From assembly GCA_964354805.1 (NCBI GenBank), contig CAYHBD010000016.1:101472-165471 (forward strand): a DNA stretch of 64,000 nucleotides. The letters are read 5' to 3'. This DNA comes from an uncultured archaeon (lineage in GTDB: Archaea > Iainarchaeota > Iainarchaeia > Iainarchaeales > GCA-2688035). A model generated the notes under the pieces. That model had not been told where the DNA came from. It saw only the letters and a list, made by a program, of their open reading frames with translations, and searched no databases. The position numbers and the translations under genes are program-made. This document shows positions 22,318 to 31,360 of the stretch, in pieces. The first letter of the stretch is position 1, and each line of letters opens with the position of its first letter.

Positions 22318-22355
22318 ACTTTTTTTTAAATTTCTGTTTCAAGCATTGCTTGGCA

Positions 22356-24644
22356 CTATGCTGGCGTTGAGCATCCGTCCCCCGTGTTCCGTTGCCTTAT
22401 TTTTTGCATTAATGCAAGCATGCTTATTTCTCCTCTTTTCCACTGGCTGATATATCCCAACAGTTTTTCGTTGTCAACGCATTCTGTTATTGCCGTGTTT
22501 GTGCAGTCTGCTGCGCATGTTTCAGCGCTTTCTCCAAGCTCTGGTTCACATGTTCCGTTGCTGTTGCAAAAATTTAGTGGATTTGGGTCTTCTCCGTCCC
22601 TAATTCCATCCTTGTCTGAATCTGGGTAAAAAACATCAGTCCCAATTGCAGTTTCTTCCGTGTCTAAAAGCCCGTCGCTGTCCGAATCCGTGATGCCTGT
22701 TTTGTTTTTTCCCAAAAACTTGGCTATGCCGTATACATTGGACCTGAACGTGTTTGTGCTTATCACTTTTCTATTCACCCCGCTTAAATCGTAGTCTTCT
22801 TTCCAAAAGCCCGTTTGCGCATCAGGGGCATAGTCTCTTAGGTATGCATCAATCCCTTTGTTCACCCCATAGCCCCATGCAATGCCCTCAATATCCCAAT
22901 AGCCCCTTGTTTCGGCATAAGGTTTGCTTAAATCAAGGCAGCCGGAGTAATTTGCAGGGGACGTGCTGTCAAGGCAGGCATCTGAAATCATAAATTTGTA
23001 TATGTATCCATCACCGTGATCTTGTAAGCCGTAAGATGGAATTGGGGTCACAAATTCGCCGTTTGCTTCCTCATCTATCAGGTAGTAGTTGAATCCGGCA
23101 AACCCGTACAGGCAGAGGTAGGGCTCCTCAGGGTAATAATAGTTGCAGGAAAATACCGGGTCGTTTGGATTAATTGTTGCATTTCCGCTTGGAGTGGTTG
23201 TAGTGTCATAGCTTCCTGTGGTATAGAATGTGAAAATATTTCCAGCTCCCTTTGGGTCAGGGCGCTCGTCATATGTGATGACCCTGTCTATGTAGTAGAG
23301 TGAATCCTCCAAAGCCTTTCTTATATTATCGCTGGTTGTTCCCGTTTCCTCCATTTTCTTCTCAATAAATCCCATTCTCCTAATTAGCTCAAGGCTTTCC
23401 CGCACGGCAAAGGCAGGCGGTTCAAACGGCCTTGCCGGCGTGCATTTGTCGTCCAATGCATGGTACTGCTGGCACCAGCTCCTGTTTCCATACTCTTGGA
23501 AGACATCGGTAAGCCAGTTTAGCTGGAGATTTAAATTATTCAATGCCGAGCTGTTGCCTGTGACCTCGTAATAGCGCCATAAAAACGGCAATAGGTTTGA
23601 TATGGTGCTGTCGTTTATCGGCTTGTGCAACAAATAGCCGGCAACCAGCGACCCATATCCTTGGCCTCCTGTTACTAGCCTGCTCTTGCTGCCTGCCATT
23701 AGGGGGATTCCGCCGTTTGCATAAGGCTTGAATGCCTGCCCGTTTTTGAGAGGGTGTTCCGGCGGAAGGCTGCTGATATATGCTTTGAAAGGGTGCAACC
23801 CGCTCTTGCCAGACCAGCCAACAGTGATGTCAAAATAGCTTGCCCTTATTTCAAAATCGTTTCTGTATGCTTCCACCAGATTAAAAAATTTTGTTGCCCC
23901 ATCCAAAAAATCTGTTCTGTCAATTCCTTCCAATGGGTCAACAACTCCCGAAGAAAAATCAAGGTCTTTTGTTGAATCATACAACTCCAGCAAAAAAATC
24001 GCAGCTTTGGTGCTGATGCTGTCGTCAAAAGCCACCCATGCGTCTTCCCTGGATAAAAGCCCGGCAAAGTCTATATCCCCCTGCTCTTTCGGAGTTTTTA
24101 TTTTGGGCAGTGCCCAGTGGCCGATTTCATTTTGGATTTTGGCGTTGCTTCTGGTCTCAGGGTTATCTGGAATTATGAATGCATAATCAATAAGGCCCCC
24201 GCTCTCAAGCTGTGGCTTTTGCGATCCGTCTTTTGGATTTGTTTCCAAGTCTTTTTGAATTGACAACAGCGTTTTTCCGGCTTCAATCGCATACTCCAAA
24301 TATAATTTGTTTCCCGTGTTTTCGTATGCCCGCAGAAAAGCCAGCCCTGCCCCGGGGATGCCTGGTTCCATAATAGAAACAAGGGGCTGGTTTGCTGCAA
24401 CACTGTCGTCAACCCCCCACATTGGTTTTGAAGGGTCGTCCACTGTTTTTACCATTGGGAAGCCAACATAAGTATTGCCATCTGCGTGTTCAAACCTGCC
24501 GCCGCTTTCCCAAAAGGACTGGATAGCGGAATCGAGGTTGTCCAGCAAAATTTGGTTGTTTGAAGCTTGAGCGCCAGCTGCCCCAAGCAAAAGCGTTAGC
24601 AGAAAAGCAATTGCAATAATCTCCCCGTGGTGTTTCATTTTCAT
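22356..24644 (-). CDS. Secreted PL10 pectate-lyase-like protein with QWKxG tail (gene C)
   Basis: PGAGLAFLRAY..TG, AFDD, INDST and WCQQY...PARPFEPPA..ES motifs; DSDSDGL Ca-binding repeats; shared tail. Confidence 0.75.
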   Translation of the reverse strand: MKMKHHGEIIAIAFLLTLLLGAAGAQASNNQILLDNLDSAIQSFWESGGRFEHADGNTYVGFPMVKTVDDPSKPMWGVDDSVAANQPLVSIMEPGIPGAGLAFLRAYENTGNKLYLEYAIEAGKTLLSIQKDLETNPKDGSQKPQLESGGLIDYAFIIPDNPETRSNAKIQNEIGHWALPKIKTPKEQGDIDFAGLLSREDAWVAFDDSISTKAAIFLLELYDSTKDLDFSSGVVDPLEGIDRTDFLDGATKFFNLVEAYRNDFEIRASYFDITVGWSGKSGLHPFKAYISSLPPEHPLKNGQAFKPYANGGIPLMAGSKSRLVTGGQGYGSLVAGYLLHKPINDSTISNLLPFLWRYYEVTGNSSALNNLNLQLNWLTDVFQEYGNRSWCQQYHALDDKCTPARPFEPPAFAVRESLELIRRMGFIEKKMEETGTTSDNIRKALEDSLYYIDRVITYDERPDPKGAGNIFTFYTTGSYDTTTTPSGNATINPNDPVFSCNYYYPEEPYLCLYGFAGFNYYLIDEEANGEFVTPIPSYGLQDHGDGYIYKFMISDACLDSTSPANYSGCLDLSKPYAETRGYWDIEGIAWGYGVNKGIDAYLRDYAPDAQTGFWKEDYDLSGVNRKVISTNTFRSNVYGIAKFLGKNKTGITDSDSDGLLDTEETAIGTDVFYPDSDKDGIRDGEDPNPLNFCNSNGTCEPELGESAETCAADCTNTAITECVDNEKLLGYISQWKRGEISMLALMQKIRQRNTGDGCSTPA

Positions 24645-24730
24645 TCAATTAGAATAAGCACTTTGTTTAATAAAAATTTTGTTGTCGCCCAAAAGCGCTT
24701 CAAACTTCCATTTCAAGCACCGCTGTCGGC
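24631..24730 (-). repeat. pheT 3' end plus gene C promoter; inverted-orientation partner of 31262-31360
   Basis: 87/100 positions identical in a manual alignment. Confidence 0.9.
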
Positions 24731-31260: not shown

Positions 31261-31261
31261 C

Positions 31262-31360
31262 GCCGACAGCAGTGCTTGAAATGGGGATTTGAATATTTTT
31301 GGGCGATAACAAAATTTTTATTAAAGAAAGTGCTTATTCTAATTGATTGGAAATGAAGCA
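31262..31360 (+). repeat. Copy of the pheT 3' end plus family promoter, between genes D and E
   Basis: Encodes PTAVLEMGI* versus pheT PTAVLEMEV*, then GGGCGATAACAAAATTTTTATTAAAGAAAGTGCTTATTCTAATTGA. Confidence 0.9.

Follow-up and report, generated by a model that had tools for sequence, protein, structure and literature searches.

In homology-facilitated illegitimate recombination, a mode described for type VI secretion system (T6SS) effector modules and for the displacement of Rhs C-termini, a homologous anchor at one end of the exchanged DNA is combined with an illegitimate join at the other (PMC3240628, PMC5361080). Here we analyze a locus of comparable anatomy around pheT, the gene for the archaeal PheRS beta subunit, in which the last codons of pheT recur in the spacer between two nearby genes, D and E, and a third gene, C, occupies the end of pheT itself. 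The DNA under study, hereafter the window, is a 64,000-nt stretch (positions 101472-165471 of contig CAYHBD010000016.1, or C16, in assembly GCA_964354805.1) of a 1.38-Mb archaeal metagenome-assembled genome (MAG) in 49 contigs, 88.5% complete, from a tiny, Iainarchaeum-like member of the DPANN archaea (source genome G000). The evidence consists throughout of assembled sequences of this one MAG and of related genera, five of which, from the same taxonomic family as the source genome, were compared at the locus. Genes C, D and E belong to a group of about 16 cassettes, and we find that the D/E spacer is probably the scar of non-reciprocal recombination within this group, by homologous or homology-facilitated illegitimate recombination and gene conversion; that is, the record of a past exchange between look-alike gene cassettes and not a working switch.

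The T6SS and Rhs displacements resemble this locus in pairing one homologous anchor with a microhomology join, in leaving the old gene end as an orphan stub downstream and in keeping the host gene unbroken (PMC3240628, PMC5361080). Here, however, the host is a DPANN archaeon in which no transformation system is known, the displaced piece measures 6-17 codons, the case is drawn from sequence comparison, and the D/E event would be anchored on a paralogous promoter instead of an orthologous locus. The lpl cluster of Staphylococcus aureus (Tsuru and Kobayashi, 2008; PMC2568036) offers a parallel for the spacer, since its unit comprises a 3′ region, the intergenic DNA and the 5′ region of the next gene, as do the D end, the spacer and the E start; in both, gene-end similarity disagrees with that of the gene bodies and conserved stretches serve as recombination sites. 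In contrast to the lpl genes, our cassettes have conserved ends and a variable middle, a piece of an unrelated housekeeping gene is included, and the source lies inverted 6.5 kb away. WHO elements of Torulaspora and Lachancea (PMC7282813) likewise have a working 3′ end upstream and an old 3′ end stranded downstream of the insert, and a host-gene fragment travels with them to other loci, as the pheT fragment appears to have done here; the C cassette differs from them in carrying no endonuclease (a LAGLIDADG-type open reading frame, or ORF, lies outside the unit bounded by the two pheT ends), in giving no ground to infer homing, and in duplicating 30 nt rather than about 400 bp. Archaeal integrated elements (PMC6563490) and integron cassettes share with this locus direct repeats at gene 3′ ends and the topology of a circle junction, whereas here there is no integrase, shared core or attC-like fold, and the cassettes have their own promoters and diverged repeats.

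The spacer between genes D and E

Genes D (29125-31260, plus strand) and E (31353-33521, plus strand) are both members of the cassette family, and the DNA between them matches the far side of the locus, where gene C (22356-24644, minus strand) follows pheT (24700-26346, minus strand; assigned from Pfam and from relatives). By repeat finding and alignment, positions 31262-31360 match the reverse complement of 24631-24730 at 87 of 99 aligned columns with one 1-nt gap, which bears out a match of about 100 bp reported in a first-pass annotation of this DNA. The copy opens with a spare pheT 3′ end, here called t′ (31262-31293, plus strand), whose translation over 31263-31292 is PTAVLEMGI-stop, against PTAVLEMEV-stop at pheT's own end (24700-24729), again as the annotation had read it. 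The alignment of t′ to the pheT end (score 28) was not equaled in 1000 shuffles (p = 0); having no start codon, t′ is thus not expressed as such. A metagenome pattern scan for the pheT-tail motif returned 0 matches. The remainder of the copy (31294-31360, plus strand) contains the C upstream spacer, promoter-like box, leader and first codons, and is predicted to act now as the promoter of E. At the source, the corresponding parts are R1 (24700-24730, minus strand), which is the functional end of pheT with its last 9 codons and stop, and the C upstream spacer (24645-24699, minus strand), in which a short T-run is followed by the family promoter-like box and leader.

On the other side of the D stop, the last 134 nt of D (31131-31264) match the last 134 nt of C (22352-22485, reverse complement) at 124 positions (92.5%), and the next base starts the pheT tail. 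The two C-derived patches abut, and 31131-31360 is colinear with the C 3′ end followed by the pheT tail and the C upstream region, in agreement with the earlier description of a C-type tail on D followed by a pheT-type copy. At the left border, the post-stop sequence of D starts as family-type and turns pheT-type within GCCG, four letters common to both; at the right border, C-type similarity stops just past the start codon, beyond which E is 95% identical to D. This anatomy supports a reading of the spacer as a head-to-tail junction of C units, circular or tandem. Such a junction had been proposed in the first-pass annotation, and the repeats that bracket C, together with a second bracketed cassette on contig C31 (both described below), speak for that part of the proposal; the att-like mechanism coupled to it finds no support, with neither a common core nor a linked recombinase in evidence. 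The 99-nt and 134-nt copies are inverted around pheT, the LAGLIDADG-type ORF, pheS and D and span 6.5-8.6 kb (the annotation's figure of about 6.5 kb holds), and the longest exact runs common to the inverted arms measure 33 and 20 nt.

Sliding-window comparisons reveal a mosaic. Between D and E, identity is about 60% in the body (52% in amino acids), 75-84% in the tail and 90-93% over the leader and signal peptide; between C and D it stays at background level in the body and reaches 89-98% over 31116-31260 (plus strand), the C-type tail patch at the D 3′ end; and the regions upstream of C and E are 86-88% identical in these windows, within a range of 86-93%. Because the patch is far more alike than the D and E bodies, the whole stretch 31116-31360 is far younger than the D/E duplication and cannot be the original D/E junction. 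The copies have diverged by 7-13% from their source, and for this reason probably represent history rather than an active switch. As to the direction of copying, the pheT C-terminus (..PTAVLE(M/I/L)EI) is kept in 24 relatives, with the Pfam CLM domain extending to the last residue, which indicates that pheT is the source and the spacer copy derived.

A tblastn search of the whole genome with C, D and E finds about 16 genes that are alike only in their last ~65 residues, made up of a Cys-rich stretch and two short helices. At least 10 of these carry a ~45-nt TATA-like box and leader before the start codon (the box lying 30-45 nt upstream), a promoter-like element that a genome-wide search places at family members only, and about 20 nt after the stop codon are common to six members. 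The bodies are unrelated or distant; the tails are 71-90% identical in DNA, with C and D the most similar pair (90%, other pairs 71-88%). Conserved end blocks, diverged middles and an incongruence between end and body similarity are thus all present, as looked for in a paralogue family with gene conversion at its conserved ends. By these features C, D and E are predicted secreted-protein cassettes with constant ends and variable middles. The 762-aa product of gene C is a secreted protein that has a signal peptide and the family C-terminal tail and matches pectate lyase (Pec_lyase) weakly; D and E match no Pfam family. Solved structures, searched by sequence with C and D, gave no match; a homologue of C, P0002, is 79% identical.

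Of 22 other genomes of the taxonomic family that were searched, 10 (from 4 of the 11 genera) likewise encode the tail domain, in genes that end in ..GC-stop and have no post-stop element; strong flanking repeats were absent around all eight assessable tail-domain genes of relatives. In the source genome, about half of the family tails (on C16, C9 and C40) are extended by some four residues (..PTPA) beyond this ancestral ..GC-stop, and in some members a 1-nt shift makes the old stop and 3′ flank coding, with about 20 nt past the new stop conserved in six. A derivation of the family-wide post-stop element from the pheT tail was considered and rejected as not significant (p 0.03-0.9), and the element is kept only as possible microhomology.

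Gene C and the end of pheT

Gene C is bracketed by imperfect direct repeats, R1 and R2 (22326-22355, minus strand), which match at 26 of 35 positions with two 1-nt gaps. That C lies between such repeats had been noted before; what they are becomes apparent from the 38-nt gap that parts the stop codons of C and s88, the latter (22051-22317, plus strand) being a small gene, conserved and convergent with pheT. These 38 nt resemble the pheT 3′ ends of the source genome and of eight of nine relatives (empirical p ≤ 0.0005, 2000 shuffles), the best match being 22 of 25 positions in relative G004. R2 reads in frame as AMLETEI-stop, and its relic stop (22326-22328) sits 8 nt from the s88 stop; in relatives the real pheT stop occupies that place and the convergent genes abut, as in G004, where a 39% identical s88 homologue abuts the pheT stop. 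Since R2 resembles pheT ends in the ancestral position beside s88, C was spliced into the pheT end. By this comparison, a new result of the present analysis, the native pheT end survives as a fossil in the 30 nt after the C stop, and C is a 2.34-kb insert within that end, with the working end R1 upstream and the native last codons, as R2, stranded downstream. At three positions where R1 has since changed, t′ and R2 agree with the state in relatives, a pattern that fits a descent of all three from one ancestral tail. On the opposite strand, the R2 stub presents a T8 run directly after the s88 stop. Archaeal terminators are oligo-T runs, and the stub may survive by still terminating s88.

We propose that these features arose through ordinary homologous recombination and repair (gene conversion and homology-facilitated illegitimate recombination), without a site-specific recombinase. 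In a first step, the end state of which is visible at the locus, a C-type cassette would have been spliced into the pheT end, leaving R1 before C and R2 as a dead stub by s88; a strand carrying the 3′ part of pheT and the C cassette, from a donor that may have been another strain or a paralogue in the same genome, would pair within pheT and join illegitimately at microhomology in the resident tail, leaving the stub behind. In a second step, about 100 nt of the pheT-C junction, comprising the last 10 pheT codons, a short T-run and the C promoter and leader, would have been copied to the front of E, anchored on the right by the family promoter and leader of E and on the left by the post-stop element of D through the 4-nt microhomology GCCG. 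In a third, the last ~145 nt of D would have been converted to C type, in the same or a separate event. Were it one event, its template would have to be a head-to-tail junction of C, supplied by a tandem duplication, an excised circle or a template jump from R2 to R1.

Several points weigh against this account. The exact abutment of the C-derived patches is predicted by a single circular or tandem intermediate and would be a coincidence under two conversions. The one-step and two-step paths appear inseparable, the abutment favoring one step and the family-type letter after the D stop favoring two. Moreover, the left third of R2 (~11 nt) agrees about equally with pheT and with the family post-stop element, which makes the position of the junction uncertain by about 12 nt; R2 may be a fusion of a cassette end and a pheT stub. 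Finally, a dependence of the proposed events on RadA is assumed.

The five related genera have a fixed gene order at this locus: ychF-like gene, RFC, (s88), pheT, pheS, PIN6 and g34887. The window contains the RFC large subunit gene (20630-22012, plus strand), pheS (27540-29009, minus strand; assigned from Pfam) and PIN6 (33591-34088, plus strand), and the pheS-pheT orientation in the source genome is the ancestral one found in all five relatives. Genes C, D and E, the LAGLIDADG-type ORF between pheS and pheT (26348-27343, minus strand) and a PIN-domain gene between PIN6 and g34887 (34089-34610) are missing at the locus in these genera and are therefore lineage-specific insertions. Flanking repeats were not found around the D/E block (p 0.48) or the LAGLIDADG insert (p 0.38); the PIN-gene insert shows a marginal 16-nt flanking match (p 0.009). 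Across the whole 1.38-Mb genome, LAGLIDADG_3 has 15 matches, nine of them above the Pfam cut-off, some being inteins in long ORFs and several free-standing.

The closest relative, G009, holds another insert at the RFC/pheT junction (L033:5540-9715), a gene for a 1391-aa CARDB/Kazal/DUF333 secreted protein that is convergent to pheT. The RFC/pheT site has taken up secreted-protein genes independently in the source genome and in G009.

Gene-end stubs elsewhere in the genome

Comparing upstream with downstream flanks, cassette by cassette, we picked out a second bracketed family cassette on contig C31 (8289-10127, minus strand; locus L068, 8234-10287), which encodes 612 aa from a TTG start and has the family promoter. 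The last 16 codons and stop of a glutaredoxin-like gene (10237-10287) recur at 8234-8284, 7 nt past the cassette stop, as a 51-nt repeat (z 14.8; ERQKIEQALKEKGLLK vs ERQRIEQALREKGLLK). The glutaredoxin-like C-terminus is kept in relatives; there as little as 24 nt separates the gene from the next conserved gene downstream, and the locus shows no family cassette that could be detected.

A wider scan, in which the last 60 nt of each of 2674 long ORFs were sought within 6 kb downstream of that ORF, gives about 40 matches above the control maximum, paralogue tails included. Clean gene-end stubs accompany four small inserts: a 642-nt insert with a PIN-like gene (C46:1194-1948), a 727-nt insert with a MazE/PIN pair (C42:77434-78247), a 661-nt insert with two genes, one wHTH and one uncharacterised (C9:29437-30304), and a 1554-nt insert with an AAA_14/DUF4143 ATPase (C42:11740-13575). 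Their stubs measure from 43 to >136 nt, and the repeats end at varying distances from the stop codon. A rule that such duplications always end exactly at the host stop codon fits the C and C31 cases, fails for the other stubs and was rejected.

The PIN-like insert on C46 lies between rmlB and rmlA, and one genome from a different genus (G016; L195, G016:C3) has it too, together with the stub, at about 76% nucleotide identity over about 1 kb. Several further relatives lack it, among them members of the G016 genus that are more closely akin to G016, a distribution that could be explained either by transfer at a fixed site or by precise losses on several occasions.

Alternative explanations and gene gain in the lineage

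Site-specific mobility of the cassettes, in which the pheT end is an attB, R1 and R2 are attL and attR, the spacer is an attP-like circle junction and a tyrosine recombinase acts in trans, would account for the exact circle-junction topology of the D/E spacer. Repeats of 30 and 51 nt, as at C and on C31, also fall within the range of archaeal att sites, for which 3′-distal targets in protein genes are known (PMC6563490). The genome contains two tyrosine recombinases, both recognized by Phage_integrase and both located off the cassette contigs C9, C16, C31 and C40. One, a divergent 435-aa protein on C10, would be a candidate for the trans-acting enzyme; the strong match is a housekeeping XerA on another contig (XerA equivalog on C45, 267.9 bits, cut-off 220). 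Neither within the cassettes nor next to them is there an integrase, the genome yielded no serine recombinase, and profile searches agree with the first-pass annotation that the 64-kb window holds no recombinase; the 2.34-kb C unit encodes only gene C. Inspection of the repeats likewise speaks against a site-specific enzyme. The bracketed cassettes are without a common core, as the ~30-nt pheT tail of the C repeats is unrelated to the 51-nt glutaredoxin-like tail on C31, and the repeats range from about 30 to >136 nt, with ends unfixed to the stop codon. There is no third pheT-tail copy and no further glutaredoxin-tail copy genome-wide, and the post-stop elements of the family are not significantly pheT-like (p 0.03-0.9). 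We consider this explanation quite unlikely.

Set beside the known classes of element, the locus has the gene-3′-end direct repeats of integrated elements, with no linked integrase and no recurrent att core, and the duplicated host 3′ end of WHO elements, with the old end stranded downstream and no endonuclease in the insert. Integron features are absent: there is no integrase by the array, the members have a predicted promoter-like box of their own, and DNA folding of 31250-31350 on both strands, 24640-24740 and 22300-22370 gave no attC-like hairpin beyond shuffles (z +0.63 to -1.41). These comparisons do not support a dedicated pheT-anchored mechanism, whether att-like or by inversion, of the kind that the first-pass annotation had suggested. 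By that annotation's own reasoning, a fixed gene order in relatives and a lack of other cassettes with the same flanks would speak for a one-off duplication, and this is largely what we find: in relatives the order is fixed and the cassettes are absent, and a search for further cassettes with pheT-type flanks yielded none, the C31 cassette being bracketed by a different gene end.

We also give little credence to a history in which a D/E tandem array once lay downstream of pheT, with t′ as its original junction, and was later moved in inverted orientation past pheS, with C arriving afterwards. Right after the E stop (33519-33590), a marginal pheT-tail match (12/15, p = 0.019) gives way to a remnant resembling the family promoter, which passes into the promoter region of PIN6. 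A tandem array would be expected to end in this way, and the stretch may be the decayed remains of a longer one. Yet t′ with its flanks shows 87-93% identity to the C locus, and D and E only ~60% identity to each other in DNA, whereas an old junction should have decayed much further. In addition, no pheT-tail copy lies upstream of D, the place where, in our own modelling, simple paths of one or two inversions would leave one.

A programmed inversion switch of the shufflon or inverton type, flipping pheT-pheS-D between the inverted copies of 100-134 nt, is very improbable. Inverted repeats of 134 nt (92.5%) and 99 nt (88%) do flank 6.5-8.6 kb, but arms that are 7-12% diverged and share exact runs of at most 33 nt would be poor substrates, there is no adjacent invertase and no changed expression to go with them, and the pheS-pheT orientation is the ancestral one in all five relatives. 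A flip performed in silico between either inverted pair changes only the last two pheT residues and swaps the cassette that follows, and so gives neither an on/off nor a variant output. The earlier claim that a flip would leave pheT intact stands apart from those two residues; the inversion mechanism built on it does not. An assembly artefact or chance similarity, to which a MAG of 49 contigs might be prone, is exceedingly improbable, as the copies are diverged and not collapsed (longest exact run 33 nt), the inner and outer gene order is as in relatives, and the alignments lie far beyond shuffles.

Non-reciprocal recombination between look-alike cassettes, the explanation we prefer, may form part of something broader. 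On a speculative reading that we hold to be unlikely, copies of host gene ends serve in this DPANN lineage as portable homology arms, an "att by homology" that works without a recombinase. If so, cassettes encoding secreted enzymes, toxin-antitoxin pairs, ATPases or homing endonucleases would lie between a working and a stranded gene end. Ordinary recombination between the two copies of that end could release them as circles or multiply them in tandem, after which they could re-enter at that gene end in other genomes or, within their own genome, at the ends of paralogous cassettes. On this view the D/E spacer would be a trapped circle junction, and the PIN-like insert between rmlB and rmlA an example of such mobility.

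DPANN archaea have very compact genomes in which few mobile elements can be recognized, and little is understood of the ways in which they acquire accessory genes. The locus described here appears to record, base by base, how a gene for a surface or secreted enzyme can be fitted into the end of an essential gene that stays intact, and how a constant promoter and tail may let pieces, even a scrap of pheT, pass between paralogues. Taken with the other stubs of this genome, it suggests that imprecise recombination anchored by homology is a main way in which genes are gained; and if stub-flanked cassettes do excise and reinsert, they would constitute a cassette system that has no recombinase of its own.

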